A stretch of 32,000 bases of DNA, taken from contig NZ_JAYKGW010000155.1 of assembly GCF_035285525.1 (NCBI RefSeq), positions 1-32,000 of the forward strand. The letters are read 5' to 3'. The position numbers and the translations under genes were made by a program. This DNA comes from Okeania sp. GTDB taxonomy: Bacteria > Cyanobacteriota > Cyanobacteriia > Cyanobacteriales > Microcoleaceae. Below the pieces are notes generated by a model. That model did not search any database. It saw only the letters and a program-made list of their open reading frames with translations, and had not been told where the DNA came from. Shown one piece after another: positions 2,734-27,994 of this stretch; the stretch's first letter is position 1; each line of letters starts with the position of its first letter.

Positions 2734-3978
2734 TCAAGAAGGTTCGCGACAAATACCAAATACAGAAGTATAACCATGTAAAAATGTACTACCACCTACA
2801 GGGCCAATTTCACCATTACAGAAAAACCCACTTATCGGAACATTCAAATAACTACTAAATAACCTAGAATCAAAATTAGGCTTACCATATAATCCCTCAC
2901 CGCGTCCCATACAAGAAAACATCAAACCAGCAGCATTATTTGTAGAAATAGTCTCCAAACCAACTTCCCTTTGATAACGTTGTAATAACATTTCTAAATC
3001 TTCTGCTGAAGTATTAGCATCCCTTAAATGAAATTGAATTCTTTGACCAGTTCTAACTCTATCACCTATAGCGATCGCTCCTGCTTTTGGATCCACCCCA
3101 ATTAAATTACGAATTAAAAAATCTCCCTGTTCTAAATTTTGTTTAAATTCGTCTCTTACTATACCGATAAATAGAGAATTTTCTGCTAACTTACGGTCTT
3201 TTTCATTGAGATTTTGTACTAAATTTTGTAATGCTTCTAATGGAGACTGTTTTATACCATCACTAACTACTTGATCTACACTAACCAACTCTTCAAGTTC
3301 CAGAACAATATTACGTTCTACTTCAGTCACCCGATAAGGTTTACCAATAGGACGACAACCTTGAGCTACTATTGTTTCTAAAATTATCTTACCCGAAAGA
3401 GATACACCTACAGTTCCTTCTTGGTAGAAGCGACCTTCACAGAATAGCCCTGTACCTTGACCATTTAATCCGCTACTAGCTAATCCTCCTACCTTGGGAG
3501 AATTTGGGTAAGCATAATCTAATCCTTGAAGTAAATCGTTAATTTTAGTAAAAAATGGATCGGCAAGAATAATAAATTGAGGTTGGTCTGCGGTAGGTAC
3601 TCCAATAAGATTACACCATAGGTCAGGAGAACTATCTAAATCTGGTAAGTGTCCTGCTGATATATGAAAAGCTTTTATTGCTACTTCTGGTAAATGTGCC
3701 AAACTAAGGCTAATGGCAATTTGTTGTTCTACTTCTTCTGGTTTATCATTTTCATCCATACCAACAATACCACCGCCACCACAGCCTATCATAATAGTTT
3801 CTGGTAGATACTCTTTTAATAGTGGCATTAGTCGTGGATATTCACTGGTAAAAGCTGACGAGATAAATACCAGTCCCAAATCTGCTGTAGCTCCTAATAA
3901 TTCTAAACTTTTTTCTGCTACTTCTTTAACTGCTGCTTCTAATGAAGGACGAGTTGATAGAAAATTTGACCACCGCAT
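2734..3978 (-). CDS. FIST-domain sensory protein (FIST_N + FIST_C), with no attached output domain
   Basis: ATG start. The N-terminal half (DLGLVFISSAF...IGCGGGGIVG) and C-terminal half (GLMFSCMGRGEGLYG...ISGFFCNGEIGPV) match the characteristic FIST N and C signatures. Confidence 0.8.
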   Translation of the reverse strand: MRWSNFLSTRPSLEAAVKEVAEKSLELLGATADLGLVFISSAFTSEYPRLMPLLKEYLPETIMIGCGGGGIVGMDENDKPEEVEQQIAISLSLAHLPEVAIKAFHISAGHLPDLDSSPDLWCNLIGVPTADQPQFIILADPFFTKINDLLQGLDYAYPNSPKVGGLASSGLNGQGTGLFCEGRFYQEGTVGVSLSGKIILETIVAQGCRPIGKPYRVTEVERNIVLELEELVSVDQVVSDGIKQSPLEALQNLVQNLNEKDRKLAENSLFIGIVRDEFKQNLEQGDFLIRNLIGVDPKAGAIAIGDRVRTGQRIQFHLRDANTSAEDLEMLLQRYQREVGLETISTNNAAGLMFSCMGRGEGLYGKPNFDSRLFSSYLNVPISGFFCNGEIGPVGGSTFLHGYTSVFGICREPS

Positions 3979-4452
3979 CTGTTTGACGCTCCTTATAATT
4001 ATGTATGATTATATTCTCTAATCTTAATATCTAGACAGTAGAAAGTTCTAGGAATAATTATTACTAGCTAAGGCTTTCAGCTATCTAAAGGTGAGAAACT
4101 TTATATTGGGAACTTTCAGTATATTCTCCTATTCTAAATTTGTACTCTCCAGTTAATATTTCAATTGTGAATATAAAATCACGAATAGGGCAAAAACCGA
4201 ACCTGGAAATAAGGTAGAATATTAGAGAATGGAATTAATTTTCTTAGTCCTTATGAGTTGGTCAGTAAATCTTAAAAGATCAAGATCATTTGGTTAGGAA
4301 ACCCGAAAAACCTATATATAAAGATAAAGAGGGATAATCTTAGCTAATTTATTGGACTATCCTTTAATTCCTAGCCCCTTTTATCGTGTTCTAGTTTAGT
4401 TAAAAATATAGAACTTAAAATTTGTAGGTAGTAAATCAAAATAAAAAAAACT

Positions 4453-4680
4453 ATGACTAATCAAAACATTCAAGAAAAAATCGAGCAAGAGCGCGAGAAT
4501 GCTCGTGAAGCTTGTGATATTTCTGGTGCTAACTCTAAAGAATGTGCAGCAGCTTGGGATGCAGTCGAAGAACTTCAAGCGGAAGCTTCTCATCAAAGTA
4601 AGACAAAACCAAAAAATTCCTTTGAAACTTATTGCGATGATAATCCTGATGCTCTTGAGTGTCGAGTACATGATAACTAG
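4453..4680 (+). CDS. cp12: CP12, Calvin-cycle GAPDH/PRK regulatory protein
   Basis: 75 aa. Contains the AWDAVEEL core motif, an N-terminal Cys pair (CDISGANSKEC) and a C-terminal Cys pair (CDDNPDALEC) ending in RVHDN. This is the canonical CP12 architecture. Confidence 0.95.
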   Translation: MTNQNIQEKIEQERENAREACDISGANSKECAAAWDAVEELQAEASHQSKTKPKNSFETYCDDNPDALECRVHDN

Positions 4681-4709
4681 GATTAACTGATTTAACTACT
4701 AATAATTGA

Positions 4710-4740
4710 ATAAACTACATCAAAATGCAGTTTATTTAAT
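4710..4740 (+). terminator. Possible intrinsic terminator downstream of cp12
   Basis: AT-rich hairpin ATAAACTACAT-CAAA-ATGCAGTTTAT with 10 of 11 bp paired, followed by TTAAT. It lies about 30 nt after the cp12 stop. The stem is weak. Confidence 0.3.
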
Positions 4741-4747
4741 ATGATCA

Positions 4748-4835
4748 GGATTTACGCAAAGTCACTATATATAGAGTCTGGGTGCGTTAGCGGTAGCGTA
4801 ACGCACCCTACCAATAGCGTTCATGTGTAAGTCCT
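4748..4835. mobile_element. AGGACTTACGCA-family palindromic mini-element
   Basis: Ends are AGGATTTACGCA ... TGTGTAAGTCCT. The interior holds the nested palindrome GGGTGCGTTA..GTAACGCACCCTAC. It is a close relative of the copy at 11343-11431. Confidence 0.75.
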
Positions 4836-5115
4836 AATTATGTTCAGCAAATAAGCAACTGAAGTCCTTGAGTTTGTGGCTCAGTTGCTTAATATTGAAC
4901 TAATATCAGAAAATCAATTAATACAGTTTAGATAATTAAACTAGATTTCCATATAGACAAGCAATATGCTTGTGTTGCTGAACAGTATGGCACTGTAAAA
5001 TAAATAAATTTTTATTGTTGAATTATTCATGTTTATAGCAGTTTCTAGCAATAGAGAAAACTATCTTCAAAAACAAAACCATTTTTAGGAATTTTCTTAG
5101 TTAAAGAGTAATTAA

Positions 5116-5362
5116 CTAGGGTTTGCTGATTAAACCTAAAATAATTTACAGATAAAAAAGTCACCCTTTTCAGACTCTAAAAAGAGTAAGTTTTTACGTC
5201 TGAAAAATTAAAAAAAGTTAGAATTTTGGGGTAACGCGAGGCAGACAAACAAAGGAACCTTTCTTAAAAAATACCTTCTCTATAACTCCTAGTTCGTCCT
5301 GATTTTTAACTACTCCCTAATCCCTACCTCCATAAAAAGACTTTCCATACCCAAACCCTAAA
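5116..5362. mobile_element. MITE of the TAGGGTTTGCTGA...CAAACCCTAA family
   Basis: Left end is CTAGGGTTTGCTGATTAAACCTAAAA and right end is CCCAAACCCTAAATAAA. Same end family as 10923-11192, 17618-17860, 20732-20982 and 21494-21760. Confidence 0.55.
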
Positions 5363-5630
5363 TAAAAACTATGTAAGCATTTCCTACAGAATGCTTCGCC
5401 AACAGTCCTCAGCTAAAAGCCAACAGCTATCAGCTATAATTTATTAACTGATTATATGATAATCTTGGAATCAGAGATTAGCTTTCCAGGAAAATTAAAA
5501 GTTATTAGTAAAGTATACTCCTGTAACCTGAAAAATAATTATTCATTATTTGCTGATTGCTGAGGTGCTAATATTTCAATGCTTACAAAACTACTATCTA
5601 TAGAAAATATCGATAAATTACTAAGTTATT

Positions 5631-6251
5631 ATGTTGAATTATTTACCCTTAGCTATTACATCTGAATTAGATATTTGGGTTTGGCTAGACTATAGATTAG
5701 CAGTATTATTTACTGTGATAATACCTCTATTTTTATTAGTTTGGGCTTTTGTCAAAAGAGCTGAATCTATTCAACACTTGTTGATTATTTATTGGCGAGT
5801 TGCTAGTTTATTGGCAATCACAGTTTACTTAATGATTGCTGCAATACCTATCAGTTTTTTCACATCATTAATAGCTAGATTATTAATTCCTATATCTTTA
5901 TGGTTTTGGGTAGATTTGAATGAAGAAATTAGAGAAGCTCGAAATTCTCCTCTCAAAACAAGTTTTACTTCTTGGCGCGTTGCCTGTACTATTTATAATA
6001 TCATCGGCGTAATACTGCAAATTCCTTTTGGACTTTGTGGTTTTAAATCCCGAAGTGAATTACTAAGCGATCCTTTGTGTAATGTTTGGTTAAATCCACC
6101 TTGGGCATTTAAAGAAATTTTTCATCCAGATTGGCCTCAAGAATTTATAGGTTTTTTGGGATTTTCTGGATTAATAATTTATACAATTTTTCTTTGCTAT
6201 TTCGCTTTAGTAAAGCTACAAAGACAAGGACGATCTGCTACGGGAAATTAA
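5631..6251 (+). CDS. Conserved-looking multi-pass membrane protein of unknown function
   Basis: ATG start, 206 aa, with about 5-6 hydrophobic segments (for example LAVLFTVIIPLFLLVWAF and VASLLAITVYLMIAAIPISFF). No recognisable catalytic motif. Confidence 0.6.
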   Translation: MLNYLPLAITSELDIWVWLDYRLAVLFTVIIPLFLLVWAFVKRAESIQHLLIIYWRVASLLAITVYLMIAAIPISFFTSLIARLLIPISLWFWVDLNEEIREARNSPLKTSFTSWRVACTIYNIIGVILQIPFGLCGFKSRSELLSDPLCNVWLNPPWAFKEIFHPDWPQEFIGFLGFSGLIIYTIFLCYFALVKLQRQGRSATGN

Positions 6252-6453
6252 TAATATTAAGTATCTAAATTAAATTCTTTTGAGAGGCTTAATTATTTAT
6301 TATTCTTTTTCATCCAAACGACTACTAAAATGACGTACTTCTTCTAAGAGAATATTAAATAGTTGATCGTTTTCCTCTTGACTTTGTGTTATTTCCAGAT
6401 ATCTCTGAGTTTGTGCTGCTACTTGAAGTAAAGCTTGAGTTGAAAAATAAAAA

Positions 6454-6753
6454 ATGAACAAGAATATTGCTCATCGTTTAGAACAGTACACAATTAAACG
6501 ACCAAATCAAGTATTAATAGTTAAGACAGTAATTAATGAACAGCCAGATGAAATAGCTATCTTTAAAGGTTTCTCTAGTTCTCTAATGCAGTCTACTAAT
6601 TTTAACCCAGATATACCAGTATTACCAGAAACAACTAAAATTATCAGTATTGATATACTTGCTAGTCCCTACAATCCAGAATCACCTATCTATATTCAAC
6701 AGGGACTGACTTGGGAACAAATGCAGTCCCTGTTAATAGAAGTAAGACTTTAG
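6454..6753 (+). CDS. Hypothetical protein (99 aa)
   Basis: ATG-initiated ORF with protein-like composition. No SD sequence and no motif recognised. Its stop codon overlaps the atpC stop convergently. Confidence 0.45.
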
Positions 6754-7163
6754 TTAACCATTCCACCTGCTGCTTGCAAACGCGCTCTGGCTCGCTTTAA
6801 GGTTTTTTTAGCTTGAATCTTTTCTTCAAGATTATCACCACTTTCAGCACTTTGCAGACGTTTTTCAGCTTCATCAAAAGCTAGACGAGCTGCTTCCTTA
6901 TCAATGTCTTCTCCTTTTTCCGCGCCATTAACAAGTATAGTTACTTCATTTTCTTCCACTTCCGCAAAACCACCCATAAGGGCGATCGGTGTCCAGTCCT
7001 TTTCCGCACGAACTCGCATTACACCTGCATCAAGAGCAGTCAACAGAGGAGCGTGTCCACTTAAAATGCCTAATTGGCCTGTCGTACTAGGTAAAATTAC
7101 TTCTTGAGCTTCTGAGTCCCAAACTGTTTTGTCGGGAGCTATTACACGCACAGTTAATGTCAT
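6750..7163 (-). CDS. atpC: F0F1 ATP synthase epsilon subunit
   Basis: 137 aa. The N-terminal sequence [44 protein letters not shown] is typical of the epsilon subunit. It sits downstream of the beta subunit, as in the cyanobacterial atpB-atpE (beta-epsilon) operon. Confidence 0.95.
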
Positions 7164-7194
7164 TTGTCAATAATTTGTTATTGTTTTTTATATT

Positions 7195-7232
7195 TCAGTT
7201 ATTTGAGTTATCAGTTATTAGTTATCAGCTAG
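7195..7232. repeat. STRR-like degenerate heptamer tandem repeat (TATCAGT-type)
   Basis: TCAGTTATTTGAGTTATCAGTTATTAGTTATCAGCTAG lies in the beta-epsilon intergenic spacer. Heptamer tandem repeats are typical of heterocystous cyanobacteria. Confidence 0.6.
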
Positions 7233-7457
7233 AGCACTTTCCATCGCTATTAAGTACATATCTAAGGATAAATATGACCATATTACAAGTACTTTAAGAT
7301 TTATGCTTGTACATCAATCGATCTAAAATATACTCTATAAGGAATAACTTCTGACTTCTGACTGCCGATCCATACCTCTGGATAAAACCAGAGGTTTGAG
7401 ACCTGATCTTTTCGTCAAGATTTATCTGATAACTGATGGGTAAGAGAGAAGGTCTAA

Positions 7458-9002
<1,545 letters not shown>

Positions 9003-9168
9003 TCAATTATCAATTAGCTATCAGCTTTTAGCATTCAGCTAGTCTCTTGCAGAGGAACTGCGTTAACAGCTTTTTGCAGCTCTGGGAGCAAATGCCCCAG
9101 CTATTTATTGTGCAGGATTGTTGAGTTGGAGTGAAAATCTCCAACTCATAGTGTCAAAAAATAATCTT

Positions 9169-9198
9169 GCTGACTGCTGAGTGCTGGCCGCTGACCGC
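9169..9198. repeat. STRR-like heptamer tandem repeat (GCTGAST x4)
   Basis: GCTGACT GCTGAGT GCTGGCC GCTGACC, read directly. Confidence 0.6.
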
Positions 9199-9204
9199 TT
9201 TTTT

Positions 9205-9233
9205 TTAAGAAAAACCCTAACAGGGCTAGGGTT
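9205..9233 (-). terminator. Possible intrinsic terminator for the minCDE transcript
   Basis: On the minus strand the hairpin AACCCTA-GCCCTGT-TAGGGTT is followed by TTTTCTTAAAAAAAA. It lies about 350 nt downstream of the minE stop and upstream of the atpD promoter region. Confidence 0.35.
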
Positions 9234-9588
9234 GAAACCCAATTTTTCGGTCATATTTTAGAGTATCATTGAAGGGTTCATCCGAGATGATATTAATTTT
9301 TTTGCTCAGAAATTTTTTCTAATCATACTAGAGGAATTTTTAATATCACTTTATGTTTATATTGTCAAATATATAAAACAGATATAATAACTCAATAGTG
9401 TAAAGTTATAGGAATAACTACTTGTAGCTAAGGCTTTCAGCTATCTAAAAGTATTCAGGATTGTAGGTAATGTAAGCCTTTTCCAGTAATACTTTCAGCC
9501 TGAAAAGCAAATGATTTTTTAGGATAACTTTGTACTCTCAAGATCATAACAATATTAAAATTATTACTTGTATTTGTTATACTATTAC

Positions 9589-9879
9589 TCAACTATTATT
9601 ATTCTCAGTATTTGGGTTAGCTTTAACACGTCTAATTGGTAAATTGGCCACCAAAGCTGTAGCTCTTTGATTATTTTCCAACAAAAATTCTGAGTCCCTA
9701 TCATCTATTTCGACATAACGGGACACTACTTCCATAATTTCTTTTCTCATGGCTTCAATGGTTTCTGGATTAAGGTCAGCACGGTCATGGGCAATAACCA
9801 ATTTCAGGCGACGCTTAACTTCTTCACGACTCTTAGAAGCATTTCTAGAAAAAAGTTTTTCTATAATTTCATTTAACAT
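9589..9879 (-). CDS. minE: Cell division topological specificity factor MinE
   Basis: [58 protein letters not shown] is classic cyanobacterial MinE. I chose the ATG at 9879. The track ORF extends to a TTG at 9945, which adds a non-MinE-like 22-aa extension overlapping minD. Confidence 0.85.
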
Positions 9880-9941
9880 TAGCTTATCTTGAACTAACAT
9901 AATTAGTTTACGAGGTAGGTTGAGGTAAGTTTTTTTTAGGA

Positions 9942-10748
9942 TCAAACAACTTTAGATGACAATAATTTACGCAACCAAGTAAAAAAATTTTCTTGAGGAG
10001 GGTTTAAGTCAAGAAACTCTACTCTTTCTCCATCTAAACGACGAGCAATATTATTAAATTCCAAACCTGCTTGAGAAGGATTTTCTGCTAAGACTAAAGG
10101 TTCGCCTCGGTTAGTAGAGACAATTACTTTTTCATCATCTGGAATAATTCCCATTAGTGGAATAGCCAATATTTCTTTAACGTCTTGTACAGACATCATT
10201 TCATCAGCTAGCACCATATTTGGTCTAATGCGATTAACGATAAGATTGATTTTCCGGACATTATGTGCTTCTAGGAGTCCAATTACTCTGTCTGCATCAC
10301 GGACTGCAGATATTTCTGGAGTAGTAATAATTATAGCTTCTTGGGCTGGTGCAATTGCATTCTGGAACCCTTGTTCAATACCAGCAGGACAGTCAATCAA
10401 AATATATTCATATTTTGGCACTAACATATTGACTAATTCCTGCATTTGTTGAGGAGTAACTGCTTCTTTCATGCGGTTTTGAGCCGCCGGTAAAAGGGAT
10501 AAACGGGGTTGTCGTTTATCCCTAACTATTGCTTGTTCCAGACGACATTCTCCTGCTAAGACCTCCATTGCTGTATAAACAATTCTATTTTCCAAACCCA
10601 AAAGTAAGTCCAAATTTCTCAAACCGAAATCTGCATCAATTAGTGCAACTCGGCGACCTTGTTGAGCTAAAGCCATACCTAGGTTGGCTGTGCAGGTAGT
10701 TTTTCCTACTCCACCTTTACCAGAAGTAATCACAATAATTTTGCTCAT
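9942..10748 (-). CDS. minD: Septum site-determining ATPase MinD
   Basis: Deviant Walker A ([10 protein letters not shown]), a ParA/MinD fold signature and a C-terminal amphipathic helix (FFTWLRKLL). Confidence 0.97.
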
Positions 10749-10922
10749 AAGCTATTAGATATTAAGTATAAGTAATATATATATAGTCAATTTTTGTTAT
10801 AGTACAAAGGAGGCTTTTATAAATAAAATTTTATTTTTGCCAAATTTTAAGTCAGTCAGCCAAGATCTTCAAGCTTGTATATTCTAAACTTTATATGAGT
10901 ATTTTTCCCTAAAAATTTTTAA

Positions 10923-11192
10923 CTAGGGCTTGCTGAAAAAGTCTTTTTGTCAGAGGAGAATCCAGGAGAAATGAGAAATGAGAAACATAAAAGAGTAGGG
11001 ACCTTGGATGCAAGTTGCGTACAAAAGAATCAACATTATGATTTTCTGCCCCTCGAAATTCCCAAAATCCTAGAATGCATAATTTTTCGGGAACCGTACT
11101 GGAATCACCTAAAAGCTGGTACTTTATTAGTCTCTGTAAAAGCTGAAATCTTTACCAGTAAACACTTTTATATTTACATACGCAAACCCTAA
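10923..11192. mobile_element. MITE of the TAGGGYTTGCTGA...GCAAACCCTAA family, inserted between minD and minC
   Basis: Ends are CTAGGGCTTGCTGAAAAAGTC ... CGCAAACCCTAA. It shares the internal blocks CCTAAAAGCTGGTACTTT and TTTTTCGGGAACCGT with other copies. The track ORF 10947..11192 (TTG start) lies entirely inside it and is judged spurious. Confidence 0.7.
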
Positions 11193-11342
11193 CTATTTAT
11201 CAAAATAATTAATTGGGTCTAAAACCCCGCTTTGATCGGCGAAATGTTTTTGGAGCTTTACTCAAATCCCCGTTACAAAAACAACTTCTGATTTCTGATT
11301 TCGTGAACTTGAGGCCATTAATTGTGACTGATTAAAAATACT

Positions 11343-11431
11343 AGGACTTACGCAAAGACACTATATATAGAGTATTGGTGCGGGACGAGGTATGTAACGC
11401 ACCCTACCAGTAGCGTTAATGCGTAAGTCCT
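11343..11431. mobile_element. AGGACTTACGCA-family palindromic mini-element
   Basis: AGGACTTACGCAAAGACACTATATATAGAG...GTAACGCACCCTACCAGTAGCGTTAATGCGTAAGTCCT. Near-copy of 4748-4835. Confidence 0.8.
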
Positions 11432-11482
11432 AAATACAATTTTTGTAGACTATTAATTATACATCATAAATAATATTTATCC

Positions 11483-12265
11483 CTACATCCTAGCAAAATC
11501 TCTAGCTCTACTAATACGAATACTTTGATCTACCACATAAGCCACTTCTGGATAAAATTGGACTGGTGGTTTTTCTGGCCCTCTAGCGACTTGCTCGGCA
11601 ATCCTAATTAGAGCTGGTTCCATCTGCAAAGTCATAATTACGCTCTTAGAATTTCCTCTAGCACCTGCATGGACTACTCCCCGTAAACGACCCCACACCA
11701 GAATATCTCCATCTGCAATTACAGAGCCACCAGGATTTAGGTCTCCTACAACTATTACAGTACCTGGATGCCGAATTTCTACTCCAGAACGTACAGTCAT
11801 TTCTAGATAAAGTGGTTCAGCTAAAGGTTGAACTTTTTCTGGGGAATTTTGGTTGAGACTGGTGGAAATAGATTTTTGTTCCACAGAATAACCTACTGTA
11901 GCTGCTGCTACAGCAGTTTGACGACGTGAGGTGTGAACTTTCTCTAGTTGTAGTTTTTCTTCTTGAAGAGCTTCGGCTATTTCTTGCAGTTGGCGAGTAT
12001 CTAATAGACGGTCAAATGCAATTAGCTCTACTTCTGTTTTTGGTTGCCAAAATTTCTCTCCTGCGATGAGGCGTTGTTTTAACTGTTGCCAAATTTCTGT
12101 CCAAGTCATGGGTGTTGGATTTTCTATCTCTCCATTATTAGATTCGGGAGGCAATAATAATAACAATTTTCCCTCCTCTGTTTTGAACCGTACTTGTAAA
12201 TTGGTATCTATTTGTTTTTCTGGTTCTGAGGTAGAAGTGGTTGAGGTGGAAGCATCAGAAGACAT
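11483..12265 (-). CDS. minC: Septum site-determining protein MinC
   Basis: The C-terminal beta-helix region (VRSGVEIRHPGTVIVVGDLNPGGSVIADGDILVWGRLRGVVHAG) is typical of MinC. It lies upstream of minD and minE on the same strand. Confidence 0.9.
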   Translation of the reverse strand: MSSDASTSTTSTSEPEKQIDTNLQVRFKTEEGKLLLLLPPESNNGEIENPTPMTWTEIWQQLKQRLIAGEKFWQPKTEVELIAFDRLLDTRQLQEIAEALQEEKLQLEKVHTSRRQTAVAAATVGYSVEQKSISTSLNQNSPEKVQPLAEPLYLEMTVRSGVEIRHPGTVIVVGDLNPGGSVIADGDILVWGRLRGVVHAGARGNSKSVIMTLQMEPALIRIAEQVARGPEKPPVQFYPEVAYVVDQSIRISRARDFARM

Positions 12266-12419
12266 AGAGTATGGGTTATTTTCTATCTTTTCTTATGGTT
12301 TAGATGAGCATATTATATAATCATTAGTCCAGAGTTTGGTTATTGTGTTATTTAGATTTTTTTACCATAAGATACAGCAGTAGTCAAGTTATAATTTCAA
12401 GTCGTAAAGGGTAAGGCAG

Positions 12420-12944: not shown

Positions 12945-13045
12945 AGGACTTGCGCAGAAACTGGGTTGATTTAGGGAAATTTTGTTGTTTGAAGAACAAT
13001 ATCACCGCCATCAACCTGGTTTCTTGGTTGTGCGTGCGTAAGTCC
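12945..13045. mobile_element. AGGACTTACGCA-family element, subfamily with a GAAACYGGGTTGAT...AACCYGGTTTCTTGGT interior
   Basis: Ends are AGGACTTGCGCA ... GTGCGTAAGTCC. It has the same subfamily and orientation as 20563-20678. Confidence 0.75.
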
Positions 13046-13117
13046 AGATGAAGTCATTTGTAAGAAAAAATTTTAGGGGTTTCGAGACCAAACCCCGTTA
13101 GATAAAATATTACAATG

Positions 13118-13311
13118 TCAGAACTAAAGGCATGAATGCTAATTTTAGGGTGTGTTTTGACTTTATTATGTCTGTCCCGGAGCATTTTGCTCCGGGACAT
13201 GTTTGCGGAAATGTAGCATCCCGTAGGGAATCATTCCGCAGGAAAGGAAAAAGCGCACAACGCACAACGCACCAAGACTCTATAGATAGATAGTACCTTT
13301 GCATAAGTCCT
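13118..13311 (-). mobile_element. AGGACTTACGCA-family element (reverse orientation, degenerate far end)
   Basis: The reverse complement reads CAGGACTTATGCAAAGGTACTAT...GGTGCGTTGTGCGTTGTGCGC...CACCCTAAAATTAGCATTCATGCCTTTAGTTCTGA, which parallels the copy at 28049-28205. Track ORF 13110..13304 lies inside it and is rejected. Confidence 0.65.
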
Positions 13312-14291
13312 GATATATTTAAGTTTCCTGAAAAAGTCTAATAGTGATGATAGGGAACATTTAACTAGGAAATTGATTTTGCATAACAGTCATTGCGACG
13401 ATAGAAAGCAATTTCAGAGACCTAAAGAGATTGCTTCTTTCCACTTCTAATGACTTAAGTATAGAATTATCCGGATTTTATATACTTTGGATATTATTGC
13501 GGAATGGGAGCACATTCCGCACCGAAGAACTGACGTCTAATATCTGAATGGGAGCGCATTCCACAGGAAATGCTTACATTAGGAATTATGAATAATTACT
13601 TTATGTATTAGGGGGTTAAGGATGATTAACCCCCTATAAATTTTGTATATTTTCATCTTTTTGTAACTTATCATACATTATGAAAATATAGATTTAATTT
13701 GATGGGTTTACCTAATTAATTAATTAGGGTATGTAAATATAGCAATTTATATACTGATGAGGTCAAAAGTTTCGATTTGAGCTAACCTTAACCAGGAATA
13801 AAAAGAAAAAGATAAGTTTATCTCACGAGCTTAAAAACCGCTATACATTTTTTCCTACTTTACGATAACTTCATATTAGTCATAATATCTTGTTTTCACT
13901 ACAACATATAAATGACTAGGTAACATTTTTTATTTTGTTATTTTGCTCAGTATAATTTTGGTTTCAAGCCTATATTAATACAAATATAGTAATCTTATTT
14001 TCATCCTATCCAAAATTGCTTTGCTTTGAGTGCATAAGGAACAGAGAATAGTAAATAGGTGAAAGTTTAGGTTTTTTTATTGACTTTTTGATTTATCGGA
14101 AACAATTTAGGATGGCTATATAGCTTCAGTATATTAAATGTGTTTAGGTATAAAATGATCATAGACTTAGATGAAATATTTCCGTATAAAAACTATTGAA
14201 GCGAGTTAAATACCAGAAGAGTTTTTAAAGATTCAGTAAATTTATAGACAAAGGGTTGTCATGTTTAAGTAAGAATGGCTATAGTGTATTT

Positions 14292-14571
14292 GTCAGGGAA
14301 AAAAAAGTTAACTAACCCTCCAAAACCAGGAAAAGAACTGCAAGCTTCTATCTACGAAAATATCTAAATAAACTAATCATTGATGTCATCATTACTGACT
14401 GAATAGTAAGAGTAGCTATTGTCTGTATGTCAGTGAAAAAAAAGTTAACTAACCCTCCAAAATCAGGAAAAAAACTTCAAGTTTCTGTCTACACAAATAT
14501 CTGAAGAAACTAATCATTTACCTCATAATTACTGAAAAAAATTCGACATAATTAATTAAGGAGTTCTCAAA
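14292..14571 (+). promoter_or_regulatory. Doubled ~135-nt leader module directly upstream of PEP-CTERM gene 1, including the RBS AAGGAG
   Basis: Copies at 14292-14428 and 14429-14571 share GTCAG.GAAAAAAAAGTTAACTAACCCTCCAAAA.CAGGAAAA and CAAG.TTCT.TCTAC..AAATATCT.AA.AAACTAATCATT......CAT.ATTACTGA. AAGGAG lies 8 nt before the ATG. Confidence 0.6.
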
Positions 14572-15255
14572 ATGAAAAACCAAATCGTTGCTTCCATTCT
14601 TGCTGTTCCTTTCGCTTTAGGTGCTGTATTCGCTGGTGCTGCTAATGCTTTTGAAGGTAGTGCTCAACTAAATGGTACTCCACTATTTGAATTAGATTGG
14701 AGTACAGAAGGAAATACAACAGCTACATTATCTAGTAATTCATTGACCTTTACTCCAGATGTAGCTGGTGTGTCACTGACATCACAAACAGGAGATTTTT
14801 TAGGTTTTGACATTGCACAAATCCAAGATGTGATTACATTTGACCCTTTTGAGGCAGAAAACCCTTTTCTAGACTTCGGTTCAGTCATTCCAGAGGGTCT
14901 ATCTCCTACAAACTCTACTATTAATGATGGTGAAAATGTTTTTATCCTCACTGATTTGGATTACGATGTTAGACAAGTGGCAACTAACTTAGTCGGTATT
15001 GATATAATACTTTATGGAGACTTTAATATTGGTGGAGAAGTAACTTCTGGTCAAGGTCTCTTCACATTACAATATGCTCAAAACGGTGCAACAGTAGATT
15101 CAGTCAACGCACAAATTAATAGTGATACTGGTCTCGAAGGTCTAGCTCTTTCTGGTGCTGTGTTCACTACTTCTGTTCCTGAACCAACTGCATTATTCGG
15201 TATTGGTGTTTTTGCTACAGGTTTAGTTGCTAGTCGTCGTCAGAAAAAATCTTAA
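14572..15255 (+). CDS. PEP-CTERM sorting-domain secreted protein, paralog 1
   Basis: Strong RBS and a signal peptide (MKNQIVASILAVPFALGAVFAGAANA). The C-terminus is VPEP-TALFGIGVFATGLVASRRQKKS, that is a PEP motif, a TM helix and a basic tail. Confidence 0.88.
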   Translation: MKNQIVASILAVPFALGAVFAGAANAFEGSAQLNGTPLFELDWSTEGNTTATLSSNSLTFTPDVAGVSLTSQTGDFLGFDIAQIQDVITFDPFEAENPFLDFGSVIPEGLSPTNSTINDGENVFILTDLDYDVRQVATNLVGIDIILYGDFNIGGEVTSGQGLFTLQYAQNGATVDSVNAQINSDTGLEGLALSGAVFTTSVPEPTALFGIGVFATGLVASRRQKKS

Positions 15256-15412
15256 GTAAAAATCTGGCGTTCGGGTGAGCGATCGCCCTACCTTTACTGA
15301 GAAACTCGGTTCAGATTCAATGCTGAATACATACACAGGACTCCTGATGAAGTCATTTGTGAGAAAAAAACTATAGGGGTTTGGTCTTCAAACCCCTACC
15401 ATAAATAAAATT

Positions 15413-15526
15413 AGGACTTACGCAAAGCAAGGTATTTCTGTCCGATACGAGCGACAGCGTTTGCGGAGCATTCCGTCAGGAAAGCAATCTCAAATGACCA
15501 AAGCTCCTCGATTATGCGTAAGTCCT
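15413..15526. mobile_element. AGGACTTACGCA-family element
   Basis: AGGACTTACGCAAAGCAAGG...GAGCATTCCGTCAGGAAAGCAA...GATTATGCGTAAGTCCT. Confidence 0.75.
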
Positions 15527-15734
15527 GTAAAATGTTACGATATATTTAGGGTTTCCTGAAAAAGTCTAGTAGTTATGACAGGGAACACTTAACTAGGAAA
15601 TTGATTTTGCATAACAACTCTAAGTAGTCCCTATCCATGATAGGAAGCAATTTCAGAGCTGCGTAGAGATTGCTATCCTTACCGAATGCTGCGCCAATCT
15701 TCCACTCCGTTTCAGTTCCAATGACTTAAATATC

Positions 15735-15823
15735 AGGACTTACGCAAAGGTACTATATGTAGAGTTAAAAAACTATTGCGCAATAGTTTTAACCACTATA
15801 TCTAGGGTCGCTGCGTAAGTCCT
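15735..15823. mobile_element. AGGACTTACGCA-family element (AAAAAACTATTGCGCAATAGTTTTAA interior); filled site relative to unit 1
   Basis: Sibling of 27898-27994. It is absent from the paralogous site in unit 1, which reads ATGACTTAAGTAT^AGAATTATCCGG at about 13451-13474. Confidence 0.8.
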
Positions 15824-15830
15824 GATATAT

Positions 15831-15923
15831 AGGACTGAAGCCATGAGTTACGAAAAACAGGGGTTTGAGATTGCTTCTCTTCGGTCGTATCGAACGAAAA
15901 TACGTTGCAGTTGCGTAAGTCCT
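15831..15923. mobile_element. AGGAC...GCGTAAGTCCT element with a degenerate left end, second insertion at the same site
   Basis: AGGACTGAAGCC...GGGGTTTGAGATTGCTTCTCTTCGG...GCAGTTGCGTAAGTCCT. The GGTTTGAGATTGCTT interior is shared with 17864-18008. Confidence 0.65.
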
Positions 15924-16558
15924 GATAGAATTATCCGGATTCTATATACTTTGGATATTATTGTTGAATGGGAGGGGATTCCACAGAAAGAGCTGACAGT
16001 TAATAGCTGAATGGGAGCGCATTCCACAGGAAATGCTTACATTAGGACTTACGAATAATTACTTTATGTATTAGGGGGTTAATGATTATTAACCCCCTAT
16101 GAATTTTGCATACTTTCATCTTTTCCTAATTTATAATTCATTATGAAAATATAAAGTTAACTTTATGGCCTTACCTAATTAATTAAGGTATGTAAACATA
16201 GGAATTTCTATACTGATGAGGTATAAAAGTTTGGATTTTAGCTAACATTAATAGGCAATAACAAAGATAAATAGATTAGTTTGCCCCACAAACTTGAAAA
16301 ACACATACATTTTTTCATGTTTTACTATAACTTAATATTAATAAAAATATTTTTTCACTTCATATAAACGACTAATTAAAATTTATTATTTTGTGGTTTT
16401 CATAACTATAATGAGGATTTTAAGCCTATATTCCTGGAAATATAGTCATCTTATTTTAGCATTAAGATCAGTTAAATTACACAAGATTTTTTTAAAGATT
16501 CGGTAAATTAATAGATAAGGGGTTGTCATACTTAAGTAAGAATGGCTATAGTGTATTC

Positions 16559-16834
16559 ATCAGGGAAAAAAGTTCATTAACTCTCCAAAATAGAGAGAAT
16601 AAATTCAAGCTTATATCTACGAAAATATCTTAATAAACTAATCATTGATGTCATAATTACTTACTAAATAGTAAGAGTAGTTATTGTATATATATCACTG
16701 AAAAAAAGTTCACTAACTATCCCAAACATGGAAAAGAACATCAAGTTTATGTCTATACAAATATCTGAATAAATTAATCATTGACATCATAATTACTGAA
16801 AAAACTCGACATAACTAATTAAGGAGTCCTCAAA
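16559..16834 (+). promoter_or_regulatory. Doubled ~135-nt leader module directly upstream of PEP-CTERM gene 2, including the RBS AAGGAG
   Basis: Copies at 16559-16693 and 16694-16834 are homologous to each other and to the two modules at 14292-14571. Confidence 0.6.
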
Positions 16835-17461
16835 ATGAAAAACCAAATCGTTGCTTCCATTCTTTCTGTTCCTTTTGCTTTAGGTGCTGCTGTATTCGCT
16901 ACTACTGGTGCTGCTAATGCTGCTTCTTTAAGTGGTAGTTTCCAATTTGATGGTTCAGGCGATCCTCCAACTACCCTTATTCTTACCGATGATCAACTTG
17001 ATTTCAATCCTGATGATGCACAGCTTGACCTCAAACTACAAACAGAAAGTTTTACATCTTTTGATTCTGCTTTCATTTATGACTTAGAAAACCCAGTTAA
17101 TCCTAATCCTAGTTTATTTATCGATTTAGGCGATCAAGATGGTGAGAACCTTTTATATGTTAACAACATAGGAGAATATGTCTATACTGGTGTTGGTTTG
17201 TCAACTATTATAGGTATTTCATTCGATGGTTTCTTTGAGAGCACCACTGGTGAAATATCACAGGCAACAGGTTTAATTAGTCTCACCGCAAACGATACTG
17301 TTGCAAATGTACAAAATGCTGTAGAAAATGGTACTGGTATTCAGGCAAGTTTCACTGGTTTTAGTGTTGCTACTACTTCTGTTCCTGAACCAACTACATT
17401 ATTTGGTCTAGGTGTTGTTGCTACAGGTTTAGTTGCTAGTCGTCGTAAGAAAGATGCTTAA
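16835..17461 (+). CDS. PEP-CTERM sorting-domain secreted protein, paralog 2
   Basis: Same RBS and a near-identical signal peptide (MKNQIVASILSVPFALGAAVFATTGAANA). Same tail (VPEPTTLFGLGVVATGLVASRRKKDA). The mature region is only distantly similar to paralog 1. Confidence 0.88.
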   Translation: MKNQIVASILSVPFALGAAVFATTGAANAASLSGSFQFDGSGDPPTTLILTDDQLDFNPDDAQLDLKLQTESFTSFDSAFIYDLENPVNPNPSLFIDLGDQDGENLLYVNNIGEYVYTGVGLSTIIGISFDGFFESTTGEISQATGLISLTANDTVANVQNAVENGTGIQASFTGFSVATTSVPEPTTLFGLGVVATGLVASRRKKDA

Positions 17462-17617
17462 GTAAAAATCTGCTGATAGGGTGAGCGATCGCCCTACCCT
17501 CTGCTTTCCTCCAAAGTGTAACTATTCAACCGGACATGATCGGGACTTACCCAAAGAAACGCGGTTTCTAAAGTAAATCATTGTTTTTGACAATAAACAT
17601 TTACCGAAGAATTAATA

Positions 17618-17863: not shown

Positions 17864-18008
17864 AGGACTTACGCATTAGAAATGCAATTTCAAGGTTTGA
17901 GATTGCTTTCCTTCAGAATGCTGCGCTTTCCATGTCGCGAAGTGAAACGCTGTTGCTTGCGCTGCGAGTCGCGCCATGACAAAAATACGCTGCGGGTGCG
18001 TAAGTCCT
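17864..18008. mobile_element. AGGACTTACGCA-family element
   Basis: AGGACTTACGCATTAGAAATGC...GGTTTGAGATTGCTTTCC...GCTGCGGGTGCGTAAGTCCT. It abuts MITE copy A. Confidence 0.8.
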
Positions 18009-18157: not shown

Positions 18158-18225
18158 TTTTCTTCTTTTCTTCTTTTCTTCTTTTCTTCTTTTCTTCTTT
18201 TCTTCTTTTCTTCTTTTCTTCTTTT
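18158..18225. repeat. Octanucleotide microsatellite (TTTTCTTC on the plus strand, GAAGAAAA on the gene strand), about 8.5 units
   Basis: A perfect tandem run, read directly. It ends exactly at the stop codon (18226-18228) of the PAD-like gene. Confidence 0.95.
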
Positions 18226-20469
18226 CTACTCCCTATTCCCTAAAAAAGATTTCCAGAAAGAATAATTTTTTCCTAAACGAGTTGTATTCGTAGCATCCTG
18301 AACATTGCCTTTCAATTCTTGATAATATTTATCGTCCATAAAATTAATATTTAAACTAGAATCAGCCACCAATCTCCGGAATTTTTCCTCAGTATAATCT
18401 CTCCCATTAATTAATGCTCCTCCAGGATTGGAAACCAATAATTCTCCATTAATCGCTACCGAATTAACCATATTCGGCCACCAAGCATAACCGCTATATC
18501 CAAACATTGCTGGCACTCTAATTATCTGTTGATCAGTCAGATTAAATTCCTGTTTTAACTTCTCTATTAATGGATTTATTTTTTCCCTTTGTAAATAGAG
18601 ATTATGCTCAATTAATCTAGTATTTTTTAAAGTAGCTCTTACTGTTGTTTGAGTGCTTGAACCACGATTTATAGCAGCTTGACCATAACCTTGTTGACTC
18701 AATTCTTCTAATAATTTAACCCCCGCTTCTGGACTCACAATTAACATTAATGGTTTGCCAAATTTGCTAGGAATAAAATTAATAATTTCATCAACATGAC
18801 GAATCATTAACCAAGAAGTATCAATATCAACTGGCGGACCTTGAACTTTCTGTGCTTTAATAAAGTCAATAATTTCAGGATTCATACCTACTTCTCCTGC
18901 TTTACCATAATATATTCTTCCCATCGGATATCCTGGTAAAGATGGTGTCACCTCCAGATTTCCATAACCATCCACCCATCTATTTAGAGGATCAAGTCGT
19001 CTAGGTTGACCAACTTCAAACCAACCAAAATTTTCTTTGAGAAGACTGAGAGAATATTGGTCATTTTCCCCCTCACGATTAGCTTTGAGGACCACATTCA
19101 TATTATGGAGCTGACCTTGACTGGGAAACTGCACATAACCTATTTCTTGAGTGTCTTGCATCCAGGTAGTGCCACCAGGATTAATTTTTGCTGTGGCACC
19201 TGTTTTTTCAATAATTTCTCTAATTTTATTAATAAACTCTTCATTGGCAAAACCACGATCGCTCACATGAAGTTCTTTGACTGGAGCAGTATTAGGAGAC
19301 ATTAACCAAGGAACCACACCTATTTGAATACTATCAGTAGCAATTTGTTGACCATTTTTTTCAGCGATCGCCTTCAAATTAACTACTCCTTTCCAGTTGC
19401 GATCAGCAAATTGTTTTGCTTCTACACCTAATACTATTTTATCCCCAGGTATCAAAGCTTCAATGCCAGAAATATCTACTCTTTCCCATCCATATTCTGT
19501 TTTTTGGAAAACATTGATATAATCACTAACATTTGCATCTGTAGAAATATAAATTTGAGCATCCCGATAAGTTTCTGCCAATTGAATATTAATCATAGCT
19601 AAATCTGCTACATCACTTTCACCATTAACATATTGATCTTCCCAGTCTGGAATGAAATCATTGTTATCATCATCATTATTAAATAACATCAACGCACCTG
19701 TTGATAAAGACCATTTTTCTCTATCTGACTTATCAGTTTCATCCAGTTTCCCATCTCTGTTAGTATCACCATAAATTGTGAAACCAGGGGATAAACTATA
19801 TGCAATAGGTGAATGAGTTTCAGTATTATTATTTATTTGATTTTCTGTATCTTCTTCCCATGCTCTTGCTGCTATTACTTTTTCATAACAAGCAACTGCT
19901 AAATACCCCTGGTATTCTATCATTTTTTCAATCGCTCGATCTGTCATCAATGAATCTTGAGGTATTTGTCGCAAAGTTTCAATTGCCTCTAACCATAAAT
20001 TTTCTGCTTCTTGCCATGTTTGATAATTTGGCTGTTTATTTTTTCCTTTTGCTACTGCATTAGTTGCTATGCTCAGTGCTTGTTTCCAATTTTCAACAGC
20101 TTTTTCTTCTTTAATAATTCTTGCTTCTAAACTACGGAAATCTTTCAAAGTTTTTTCATATTGTCGCACTTGAAATTGGTATTGCCAAGGTTCTATTTTA
20201 TTTTGAAAATTTGGCATTTTAGATACTTTATCAAGTTCTTTTTTTAGTTGGTTTTTAACCTCGTAAAGTTCTGGTAGAGAAGTTATTTGTTCAGGAATTT
20301 TTATACTGTTATTTGCCAAATTAATAGTTTCTAACAAAGAAACTTCTGAACTTTCTGGTTGAAGAAGTGAAGATTGTGCTACTGCTTGAGGCATAGGTAT
20401 CCAAATAATTCCTACCAATGCTCCCACAGTATTAACTAGAGCTATTTTAACGTATCGCATCCAACCCAT
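18226..20469 (-). CDS. Secreted protein-arginine deiminase (PAD)-like protein lacking the catalytic cysteine
   Basis: Start chosen at ATG 20469 (GAAAGGA lies 8 nt upstream); the track ORF begins at a TTG at 20517. It has a signal peptide ending AVA|QS, a helical N-terminal region, then PAD middle-domain and catalytic-domain motifs: WMQDTQEIGY, GYGNLEVTP, YPMGRIYYG, HVDEIINFIP, WWPNMVNSV. The expected GEVHCGTN motif reads GNVQDATN. Confidence 0.8.
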   Translation of the reverse strand: MGWMRYVKIALVNTVGALVGIIWIPMPQAVAQSSLLQPESSEVSLLETINLANNSIKIPEQITSLPELYEVKNQLKKELDKVSKMPNFQNKIEPWQYQFQVRQYEKTLKDFRSLEARIIKEEKAVENWKQALSIATNAVAKGKNKQPNYQTWQEAENLWLEAIETLRQIPQDSLMTDRAIEKMIEYQGYLAVACYEKVIAARAWEEDTENQINNNTETHSPIAYSLSPGFTIYGDTNRDGKLDETDKSDREKWSLSTGALMLFNNDDDNNDFIPDWEDQYVNGESDVADLAMINIQLAETYRDAQIYISTDANVSDYINVFQKTEYGWERVDISGIEALIPGDKIVLGVEAKQFADRNWKGVVNLKAIAEKNGQQIATDSIQIGVVPWLMSPNTAPVKELHVSDRGFANEEFINKIREIIEKTGATAKINPGGTTWMQDTQEIGYVQFPSQGQLHNMNVVLKANREGENDQYSLSLLKENFGWFEVGQPRRLDPLNRWVDGYGNLEVTPSLPGYPMGRIYYGKAGEVGMNPEIIDFIKAQKVQGPPVDIDTSWLMIRHVDEIINFIPSKFGKPLMLIVSPEAGVKLLEELSQQGYGQAAINRGSSTQTTVRATLKNTRLIEHNLYLQREKINPLIEKLKQEFNLTDQQIIRVPAMFGYSGYAWWPNMVNSVAINGELLVSNPGGALINGRDYTEEKFRRLVADSSLNINFMDDKYYQELKGNVQDATNTTRLGKNYSFWKSFLGNRE

Positions 20470-20562
20470 AGTATAAATCCTTTCTAAGAAACCTATAATA
20501 ATCTCTAAAGTATACAATTCTCTATTTTATTCGAGTTTCAATGAGAATTGTTTAAATATTTT

Positions 20563-20678
20563 AGGACTTACGCAGAAACCGGGTTGATCAGACAATTTTT
20601 CGGGAACCGTATTTCCTGGTTTGAACCACAATATCACAGGCCAAAACCCGGTTTCTTGGTGGCGCGTGCGTAACTCCT
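20563..20678. mobile_element. AGGACTTACGCA-family element, same subfamily and orientation as 12945-13045
   Basis: AGGACTTACGCAGAAACCGGGTTGAT...AAACCCGGTTTCTTGGTGGCGCGTGCGTAACTCCT. Confidence 0.8.
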
Positions 20679-27532: not shown

Positions 27533-27897
27533 GAGAATCTCCTTTACTTAACTTAACAAATTAACTACGACAAACATCGAAGTTGTATAGGTTAGTAGTC
27601 CATTTTATAGGACATGGCCTACTTTACTGGGAAGTAATCTTGAGACTTACACCTAAAGCAGGAAAACCTAATATTGTTAAGAATAATCTATAGACTTGAT
27701 ATATGAATATTGATTTAATTATTGCTACAAATCTTAAAATATTAACTTCAAGTAGAAAAGAGGGAGTAGGAAGTAGACGGATATGAATTATAAGTTTTTC
27801 TTGATAAACCACATTTTTAAGGAGTAAGGGAGTAGGGGAGATAGATAAAGCTTCAAAGCTTTTTTGGGTCACAAAAAGTATCAAAAAATTACCAACA

Positions 27898-27994
27898 AGA
27901 CTTACGCAAAGGTACTATATATATAAAATATATAGTCAAAAAACTATTGTGCCATAGTTTTAAGCACTATATCTAGGGTTGCTGGGTAAGTCCT
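27898..27994. mobile_element. AGGACTTACGCA-family element (sibling of 15735-15823)
   Basis: AGACTTACGCAAAGGTACTATATATAT...AAAAAACTATTGTGCCATAGTTTTAAGCACTATATCTAGGGTTGCTGGGTAAGTCCT. Confidence 0.8.

Follow-up and report, generated by a model that had tools for sequence, protein, structure and literature searches.

Tandem PEP-CTERM genes of Okeania sp. with young shared flanks around cores that separated long before

Proteins of the PEP-CTERM/exosortase system carry a signal peptide and a C-terminal tail made up of a Pro-Glu-Pro motif, a transmembrane helix, and a basic cluster, between which lie diverse cores that are poor in basic residues and have no known homologs; they are encoded by single-gene units and expand into lineage-specific sets of paralogs (PMC1569441; TIGR02595, PF07589). 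These genes are typically located behind large intergenic regions, and a shared upstream element of PEP-CTERM genes with a sigma-54 motif (PrsK/PrsR/PrsT) was found only in Proteobacteria (Haft et al. 2006, PMC1569441). Here, we describe two adjacent PEP-CTERM genes, A and B, on a contig of Okeania sp. (NZ_JAYKGW010000155.1), of which positions 1 to 32,000, hereafter referred to as the window, were analyzed. The two genes lie in collinear units whose leaders and ends are closely alike and whose centers are highly diverged.

PEP-CTERM proteins are numerous in cyanobacteria, where, to our knowledge, only the CrtB exosortase system of Nostoc punctiforme has been studied experimentally. In that species, cells depend on their PEP-CTERM proteins to adhere to secreted polysaccharide, to glide, and to form biofilms. 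Mosaic surface-protein genes with conserved ends include those with central-domain replacement in flagellin, Neisseria pilE/pilS, and Campylobacter fetus sap. The substrates of N. punctiforme cyanoexosortase B are described as PEP-CTERM exoproteins for polysaccharide adhesion, motility, and biofilm, with indirect regulation by SigJ (PMC12188702). A conserved leader joined to a hypervariable core is also characteristic of the precursor families of ribosomally synthesized and post-translationally modified peptides (RiPPs) of the NHLP/Nif11 and prochlorosin types (PMC2887384). Conserved ends around diverse middles in PEP-CTERM paralogs are already established, as are mosaic surface-protein genes in other bacteria. 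In the literature searched, there was no description of the family to which A and B belong or of its promoter-leader and 3' untranslated region (3'UTR) modules in cyanobacteria, and none of core swapping in PEP-CTERM genes, including whole-core replacement between near-identical strains.

Gene A (positions 14572-15255, 227 amino acids) and gene B (16835-17461, 208 amino acids) are complete open reading frames (ORFs) on the plus strand, on which the features below also lie unless stated otherwise. Unit A (13043-15320) comprises upstream intergenic DNA, a promoter, the 5' untranslated region (5'UTR), gene A, and a 3' module, whose limit at ~15320 was placed by aligning this module with those of two related loci, L031 and L037. 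Unit B (15342-17500) has the same frame around gene B, but its 3' module is truncated behind a hairpin with the highly iterated cyanobacterial palindrome HIP1 (GCGATCGC). The initial annotation had described the pair as a tandem duplication, collinear over about 2.2-2.3 kb. BLASTN of unit A (13030-15345) against unit B (15330-17560) yields collinear matches (E ~1e-148), which supports the collinearity, except that each unit has a private insert: ~200 nucleotides (nt) in A (~14000-14200) and ~180 nt in B (~15746-15925), the latter containing an inverted repeat that resembles a miniature inverted-repeat transposable element (MITE).

Identity between the units, calculated in 60-nt windows along the global alignment, is far from uniform. 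It reaches 67-97% in the distal upstream block (13461-14000 vs 15925-16457) and 77-97% from the promoter through the 5'UTR and ribosome-binding site (RBS) to the signal peptide (14208-14626 vs 16474-16889), falls to 27-55%, the background of the aligner, across the core (14627-15134), and returns to 87-88% from 15164 onward, through the PEP-CTERM codons and the 3' tail. Fall and recovery each span ~30 nt at the edges of the mature domain, with the A/B breakpoints at ~14627 and ~15165. The contrast between nearly identical ends and a highly diverged center, as well as the better conservation of the non-coding leader than of the core, had been noted in the initial annotation and holds throughout. 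The center does not represent an unrelated insertion, since the two cores alone still align collinearly (29-30% identity, E = 1e-7).

The segments were dated by synonymous (dS) and nonsynonymous (dN) divergence, using the Nei-Gojobori method on codon alignments. Between A and B, dS is 0.052 in the signal peptide and 0.102 in the tail, as opposed to 2.4 in the core, where the proportion of synonymous differences (pS, 0.72) is saturated; when pooled, 3 of the 41 synonymous sites in the ends differ, compared with 71 of 99 in the core (Fisher p = 7e-13). The segments must therefore differ in age, because ends that are nearly unchanged beside a core saturated at synonymous sites are a result that selection on amino acids cannot yield. 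Strong diversifying selection on the surface-exposed domain had been one of two causes proposed for the pattern; in this scenario, a recent tandem duplication would have been followed by positive selection on the core, with purifying selection on the export signal and tail. This is a common mode in surface proteins, function constrains the ends throughout the family, and dN/dS of core A is raised, at 0.53 against L031 and 0.73 against L001 (core dS 0.36 and 0.41, respectively). However, both ratios are below 1, and each core is nearer to the cores of other organisms than to its neighbor; together with the synonymous contrast, this renders such an origin very unlikely. The cores evolve fast under weak constraint, with an average dN/dS below 1, but this is not what set A apart from B.

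The relatives of the two genes are also ranked differently by core and by flank. Closest to core A are those of L031, a Tara scaffold (69%), and L001, a Trichodesmium metagenome-assembled genome (MAG; 57%), while core B is closest to the proteins P0025 (54%), P0019 (52%), and P0023 (44%) and to the plasmid-like locus L032 (40%); the 30% identity between cores A and B is no better than that of either one with many other family members. The flanks of A and B, at 86-90% identity, exceed those of A and its ortholog L001 (69-83%), which reverses the ranking of the cores. Since the histories of flank and core are incongruent, recombination is required.

In the non-coding flanks, divergence (K) between A and B amounts to 0.19 over 523 aligned nt of the distal upstream block (13461-13995 in A, paired with 15925-16452 in B), 0.15-0.22 in the promoter and leader units, and 0.12 in the 3'UTR. 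In comparison, dS for the housekeeping genes atpD, atpC, minD, and minC is 0.35-0.42 between the window and its syntenic relative L038, and 0.47-0.65 against L042, which comes from the same MAG as L001. The A/B frame is therefore younger than those species splits: its 2.2 kb share a recent common ancestor (K about 0.05-0.2) that postdates the split from the nearest sequenced relatives, while cores A and B separated long before the flanks and represent old, separate subfamilies. The term tandem duplication is apt for the frame but not for the cores.

An ancient duplication without recombination, in which very strong purifying selection and codon bias kept the ends and leader alike, could draw on the nucleotide identity of 61-93% between genera in the proximal leader, signal peptide, tail, and 3'UTR, and on the preferred AT-rich codons of the tail. 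Nevertheless, the distal upstream block, which is as similar between A and B as given above, is mostly without counterpart in other genera, and the opposite ranking of flanks and cores is not accounted for. Furthermore, both paralogs have states that are private to the window lineage, i.e., SIL in place of SIA, the codons AGT CGT CGT, and a 137-nt leader duplication. We regard an ancient duplication of this kind as improbable.

The clearest evidence for a core moving as a cassette is a swap at one syntenic locus, whose members are L017 (Dapis BLCC M229), L018 (Dapis BLCC M172), L016 (Dapis BLCC M126), L007 (Okeania SIO2F4 MAG), and L001. All five have a common upstream neighbor gene and, where sequence exists, common downstream DNA. 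L017 and L007 are 97-100% identical to about codon 26, 28-55% identical through the core, and 90-97% identical from the PEP motif on; L017 and L018 have the same breakpoints, and L018 and L016 are collinear throughout the core. At this locus, flanks that are 92-100% identical surround unrelated cores, and the breakpoints coincide with the end of the signal peptide and with the PEP motif. By segment, L017 and L018 are 95% identical in the leader, 96% in the signal peptide, at background in the core, 89% in the tail, and 87% in the 3'UTR, and a similar pattern is seen for L004_4001/L004_5346, L006_4001/L006_4965, and L016/L020. These specific pairs and the syntenic loci were used because the pooled comparison of flank identity within and between genomes mixes several leader classes and is uninformative.

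The same structure is evident within the lineage of the window, where A, B, L031, and L037 hardly differ as far as GCTGTATTCGCT in the signal peptide; beyond it, they split into two groups, A plus L031 and B plus L037, and all four reconverge at GTTCCTGAACCAACT. The dS contrast, the young flanks, the foreign relatives of the cores, and the syntenic core swap support the second proposal of the initial annotation, in which the targeting and regulatory ends delimit gene conversion or an exchange of cassettes. In L031, a new leader unit (860-914) lies ~75 nt past the A-type gene, and the next family gene is without the 1-kb upstream region of the window.

Modularity of this kind extends across the family. 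A protein search with A returned only 29 relatives, and every one of them comes from a marine filamentous cyanobacterium (Trichodesmium, Okeania, Lyngbya, or Dapis); an alignment of 28 proteins displays very different middles between a near-invariant signal peptide and tail, with the consensus MKNQIVASI...ANA and VPEPTxLFGLGVVATGLVASRRKK, respectively. Scanning one genome per species revealed 30 loci, frequently in tandem arrays, with four genes in a row in Okeania KiyG1. When clustered with BLASTP, the cores fall into at least four mutually unrelated families that all have these flanks, and in one of the families the signal peptide can be either MKNQIVASI... or MKNLLKYAF...; free combination of the modules follows from this. 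Scans of metagenomes with leader and signal-peptide patterns specific to the lineage gave no matches. Taken jointly, it is likely that A and B are neighbors with separate promoters that belong to a lineage-specific PEP-CTERM exoprotein family of Trichodesmium-like, Okeania, Dapis, and Lyngbya Microcoleaceae, and that recombination, rather than diversifying selection on a young duplicate, made the A/B mosaic.

Four contigs of ~12.7 kb from four samples (L032-L035) are rotations of one gene order, which includes P0022, a member with a B-type core, and two DUF3854/VapE-like primase-type genes. The contig probably represents a circular plasmid that carries a PEP-CTERM cassette gene, and it is a possible vehicle for cores.

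In the proposed mechanism, homologous recombination would use the conserved ends as homology arms and thereby generate the mosaic. The more likely route would be that the frame was duplicated and one of the two cores was then exchanged for the core of a different paralog; alternatively, gene conversion may have acted on both flanks of two old neighbors. Analogous to the mosaics of flagellin, pilE/pilS, and sap, conserved export or assembly ends would serve as homology arms, the exposed middle would be replaced, and diversity would arise at the level of strains. Contrary to the pilE/pilS type, every copy examined in the present family comes with a promoter-like leader and a start codon of its own, and there are no silent promoterless cassettes among them. 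The observed variation is confined to differences among strains and among paralogs, with no sign of programmed or high-frequency switching in a clone, and the family is not placed among the programmed-cassette systems.

Several points limit this overall reading of the pair. One genome cannot separate core replacement from flank conversion, and the synonymous sites in the ends are few (41). Part of the likeness of the flanks is due to purifying selection, as conservation between genera is seen in the proximal leader, the signal peptide, and the tail, where nucleotide identity is also raised by codon bias in the case of the tail. The promoter and the limits of the 5'UTR were set by consensus. 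No exosortase was detected by an NCBIfam scan among the 17 likely-gene ORFs of at least 100 amino acids in the window (excluding four overlapping ORFs in other frames), in line with the initial annotation, and the partner enzyme is assumed. Additionally, the comparisons at the syntenic locus rely on short-read assemblies, including one MAG, in which paralog repeats could cause mis-joins; mis-joins are an unlikely cause of the pattern because synteny holds on either side of the core in three independent comparisons and two of the assemblies derive from cultures.

Assembly was also considered as the source of the window itself. The window stems from a metagenome-type contig (35,224 nt), and families such as this one are known to confuse assemblers, so that collapsed or chimeric paralogs might be mistaken for a mosaic. 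However, the flanks of A and B differ at 10-20% of positions and have private insertions, so they are not collapsed copies, and the same architecture is found in isolate assemblies of Dapis and Okeania as well as in independent metagenome contigs. An artefact is accordingly extremely unlikely.

Upstream of each gene, ~1.3-1.5 kb are without an ORF of at least 40 amino acids, the only exceptions being short overlapping ORFs at the distal ends (13054-13304; 15843-16027). Thus, A and B both display the PEP-CTERM trait of a single-gene unit behind a large non-coding region, each with a promoter-like site of its own. The conserved upstream box TTAAAGATTCAGTAAA (14225-14240 in unit A, 16492-16507 in unit B) is located directly upstream of the -35 hexamer; it is near-invariant, with the form TTAAAGATTCRGTAAA across genera, and exact matches occur only before family genes, in the window and at 10 loci of other genomes, which marks it as a candidate regulator site. 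The sigma-70-like promoter TTGTCA-18-TATAGT (14256-14285 in A, 16523-16552 in B) has 10 of 12 consensus matches in both units and aligns with TTGCAA..TAGATT, also at 18-nt spacing, in other genera; its function and the limits of the 5'UTR are predicted from sequence. Following the box and promoter, the leader in the cross-genus alignment is composed of GAGGGCAAGAGAGGTTCACAAAC right after the -10 hexamer, an A-rich stretch, CTAAGTATTAACCTCATAAT, and TAACTAATTA, with AGGAG 8 nt before the ATG; a conserved segment of the leader reads CTAAGTATTAACCTCAT.

An internal 137-nt tandem duplication in each leader was omitted from the initial annotation. In unit A, the two copies, u1 and u2, span 14268-14535 according to Tandem Repeats Finder (period 137, 2.0 copies, 84% matches), with nhmmer placing them at 14264-14398 and 14401-14535; in unit B, they span 16532-16799 (nhmmer). 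Copy u2 has a degenerate second -10 hexamer, TATTGT. In other genera, nhmmer identifies one such unit per gene, 35-48 nt upstream, at 11 loci in seven other genomes, and it finds none elsewhere in the fetched DNA apart from sites upstream of family genes. The identities of u1A-u1B (86%) and u2A-u2B (84%) are higher than those of u1 and u2 within a gene (73-82%); the 137-nt duplication therefore predates the split of the A/B frame. It is also found in L037, a third gene of the window lineage, which has an unrelated core, and this is consistent with spread of the flank module among paralogs. The 5'UTR would accordingly be ~285 nt long in the window genes, as against ~150 nt in other genera.

Genes of the MKNQIIASIAAVPFAF type (L002, L005, L008, L010, and L028) have a leader of another class, unrelated to the first, which consists of GTGAC..CATCAC ... 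GATGATAAAAACATAGAG, with ACC right before the ATG. The presence of this class in one subfamily implies at least two types of leader module.

A long conserved non-coding leader before many genes, tandemly duplicated in a manner that resembles tandem riboswitches, could alternatively be a structured regulatory RNA (a riboswitch, thermosensor, or similar), with RNA constraint explaining its conservation. Evidence for structure is not forthcoming, however: Rfam gives no match in the whole window, RNAalifold predicts 0 pairs for 22 leaders, and the folds of single leaders are no better than those of shuffled sequences (z = 0.04 and -0.36). The leader is A-rich and is conserved at the level of primary sequence. 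A structured RNA is thus highly improbable, and we interpret the leader as a regulator site and promoter followed by an A-rich 5'UTR that lacks structure. A leader peptide from an upstream ORF was considered as well and rejected, as the 24-codon ORF that starts at 14428 in u2 of unit A has no ATG in B. By-eye inspection of the leader alignment revealed no conserved NtcA-like (GTA-N8-TAC) or J-box-like motifs.

Like the proteobacterial cis element, the leader is one DNA element that lies before most family genes and only before these, which implies co-regulation of the whole set. Unlike that element, to which it is unrelated in sequence, it comprises a sigma-70-like promoter (TTGCAA/TTGTCA, 18 nt, TAGATT/TATAGT), the AAAGATTCRGTAAA box, and a conserved 150-nt 5'UTR; it is the cyanobacterial, sigma-70-type counterpart of the proteobacterial element.

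Small hairpin repeats GAATGGGAGCGCATTCC are found at 13502 and 13546 in the distal block of unit A. Palindromic G+C-rich hairpins at 13609-13636 in A and 16072-16099 in B (TAGGGGGTTAA..TTAACCCCCTA) score as intrinsic terminators on the plus strand, and those at 13076-13096 and 15373-15399 (GGGGTTTGG..CAAACCCC) on the minus strand. These intergenic hairpins of both units may be the ends of unannotated transcripts or repeat elements.

The signal-peptide codons of gene A (14572-14649, MKNQIVASILAVPFALGAVFAGAANA) follow an AAGGAG RBS at 14558-14563 and are conserved family-wide, with a dS of 0.05 to B. They are succeeded by core A (14650-15174), an acidic, beta-rich mature domain, and by the PEP-CTERM sorting tail with the stop codon (15175-15255, VPEPTALFGIGVFATGLVASRRQKKS; dS to B 0.10). 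The 3'UTR module A (15256-15320) contains the HIP1 hairpin GGGTGAGCGATCGCCC at 15273-15288 and is conserved in Dapis, Okeania, L031, and L037. In gene B, an AAGGAG RBS (16821-16826) precedes the signal-peptide codons (16835-16921, MKNQIVASILSVPFALGAAVFATTGAANA), core B (16922-17380), the tail with the stop codon (17381-17461, VPEPTTLFGLGVVATGLVASRRKKDA), and the 3'UTR module (17462-17498), in which homology to A, L031, and L037 stops just past the HIP1 hairpin at 17479-17494. The HIP1 palindrome occupies a fixed position in the 3'UTR across genera, including L003, L006, L007, and L016-L024 in addition to the two window genes, and it sits at the downstream edge of the exchanged segment.

Both proteins score above the cut-off of 16 for TIGR02595 (A 17.0 bits, B 27.2 bits) and are thereby recognized as PEP-CTERM proteins; against PF07589 (cut-off 20.7), B passes with 21.8 bits and A falls just under with 16.4 bits. 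They are not assigned to the cyanobacterial subclass TIGR04155 (cyano_PEP), for which B scores 12.3 bits against a cut-off of 21.6 and A has no match. The models of named PEP-CTERM families (LEVG, FxDxF, THxN, PepA, cistern, and others) give no full-length match above cut-off and match the C-terminal 30-60 residues only, with 12-19 bits against cut-offs of 50-100; all Pfam and NCBIfam matches of A and B are confined to the C-terminal tail. The N-termini, as read by eye, appear to be Sec signal peptides (MKNQ, a hydrophobic stretch, and ANA). Both cores are acidic, and, as is typical of PEP-CTERM cores, basic residues are scarce: core A has no Lys and 1 Arg, and core B has 1 Lys and no Arg.

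An AlphaFold model of A (mean pLDDT 74.7, pTM 0.68) is confident across most of residues 51-200 and predicts an all-beta fold with two short helices. A search of the PDB with this model gave no meaningful match; the best hit (E 0.003, TM 0.15-0.22, an astrovirus spike) was taken as noise, and the modeled structure of the core gives no functional clue.

From what is known of the PEP-CTERM family (PMC1569441, PMC12188702), the proteins would leave the cytoplasm through Sec, become anchored in the membrane by means of their C-terminal helix, and undergo processing by a cyanoexosortase whose gene lies elsewhere. They would then be delivered to the cell surface or the exopolysaccharide layer, where such proteins mediate adhesion; given this location, core swapping would vary surface properties between strains.

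The family resembles the general PEP-CTERM/exosortase system in the predicted architecture of its proteins, its single-gene units, and its lineage-specific paralogs, but it differs from the typical system in that the paralogs share signal peptide, promoter/5'UTR, and 3'UTR at the nucleotide level and that cores are exchanged whole. The N. punctiforme substrates are likewise cyanobacterial PEP-CTERM exoproteins, and this filamentous, gliding species offers the best experimental model of function, although the respective paper describes no shared leader or signal-peptide module (PMC12188702). With RiPP precursors, the family has in common many paralogs with a near-identical recognition segment and a highly variable payload; however, those precursors are short and are modified and cleaved by dedicated enzymes, whereas the proteins described here are ~200 amino acids long, are predicted to fold into beta-rich domains and to start with a Sec signal, and carry a C-terminal sorting tag.

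The window is chromosomal. On one side of the pair lie FIST, CP12, DUF3177, atpC, atpD, minE, minD, and minC, and on the other an OmpR-type response regulator, aroA, and purL. The best named matches of MinC are a MAG labeled Trichodesmium sp. and one labeled Microcoleaceae (79-80%), with marine contigs reaching up to 87%. The relatives L038, L039, L040, and L042 are collinear with positions 2726-12302 of the window (FIST to minC) at 79-90% nucleotide identity. Synteny breaks at ~12302, just before the pair, and the relatives carry a GNAT acetyltransferase or other genes upstream of minC; the pair therefore lies in a variable segment. A PEP-CTERM pair next to minC is not found in the relatives with syntenic contigs.

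A MITE-like inverted repeat with AGGACTTACGCA termini (15727-15831, no strand assigned) is located in the upstream region of unit B only, with copies in other loci. Its terminal inverted repeats (AGGACTTACGCA / TGCGTAAGTCCT) account for 20 half-sites in the window, compared with 0.06 expected by chance, and copies lie at 4747-4835, 11343-11431, 12945-13046, 15413-15526, 15735-15823, 17864-18008, 20563-20678, and 27897-27994, as well as in Okeania and Dapis loci. The pair is adjoined by an ORF of 763 amino acids (18226-20517, minus strand) that matches no NCBIfam model and has no equivalent at the loci of the relatives; a perfect microsatellite, (TTTTCTTC) x 8.8 at 18158-18227, abuts its 3' end.

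A further reading goes beyond the history of the A/B pair. The flanks may constitute a standing cassette-exchange architecture, i.e., portable homology arms, formed by the promoter/5'UTR/signal-peptide module on one side and the PEP-CTERM/HIP1-3'UTR module on the other, with which marine filamentous cyanobacteria could move cores between loci, strains, and plasmids, and the leader may be the cis element of a new cyanobacterial PEP-CTERM regulon that corresponds to the proteobacterial sigma-54/PrsR element; we advance this only tentatively and consider it doubtful at present. If true, such standing exchange would provide variation of the cell surface at the population level, for example against phages or grazers or in filament-filament recognition within colonies. 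The promoter-leader module that is common to the Trichodesmium/Okeania/Dapis clade offers a handle for finding the regulator. Furthermore, because whole cores are exchanged between near-identical strains, these genes are candidates for what makes the surfaces of strains differ in marine cyanobacteria that form blooms and mats.

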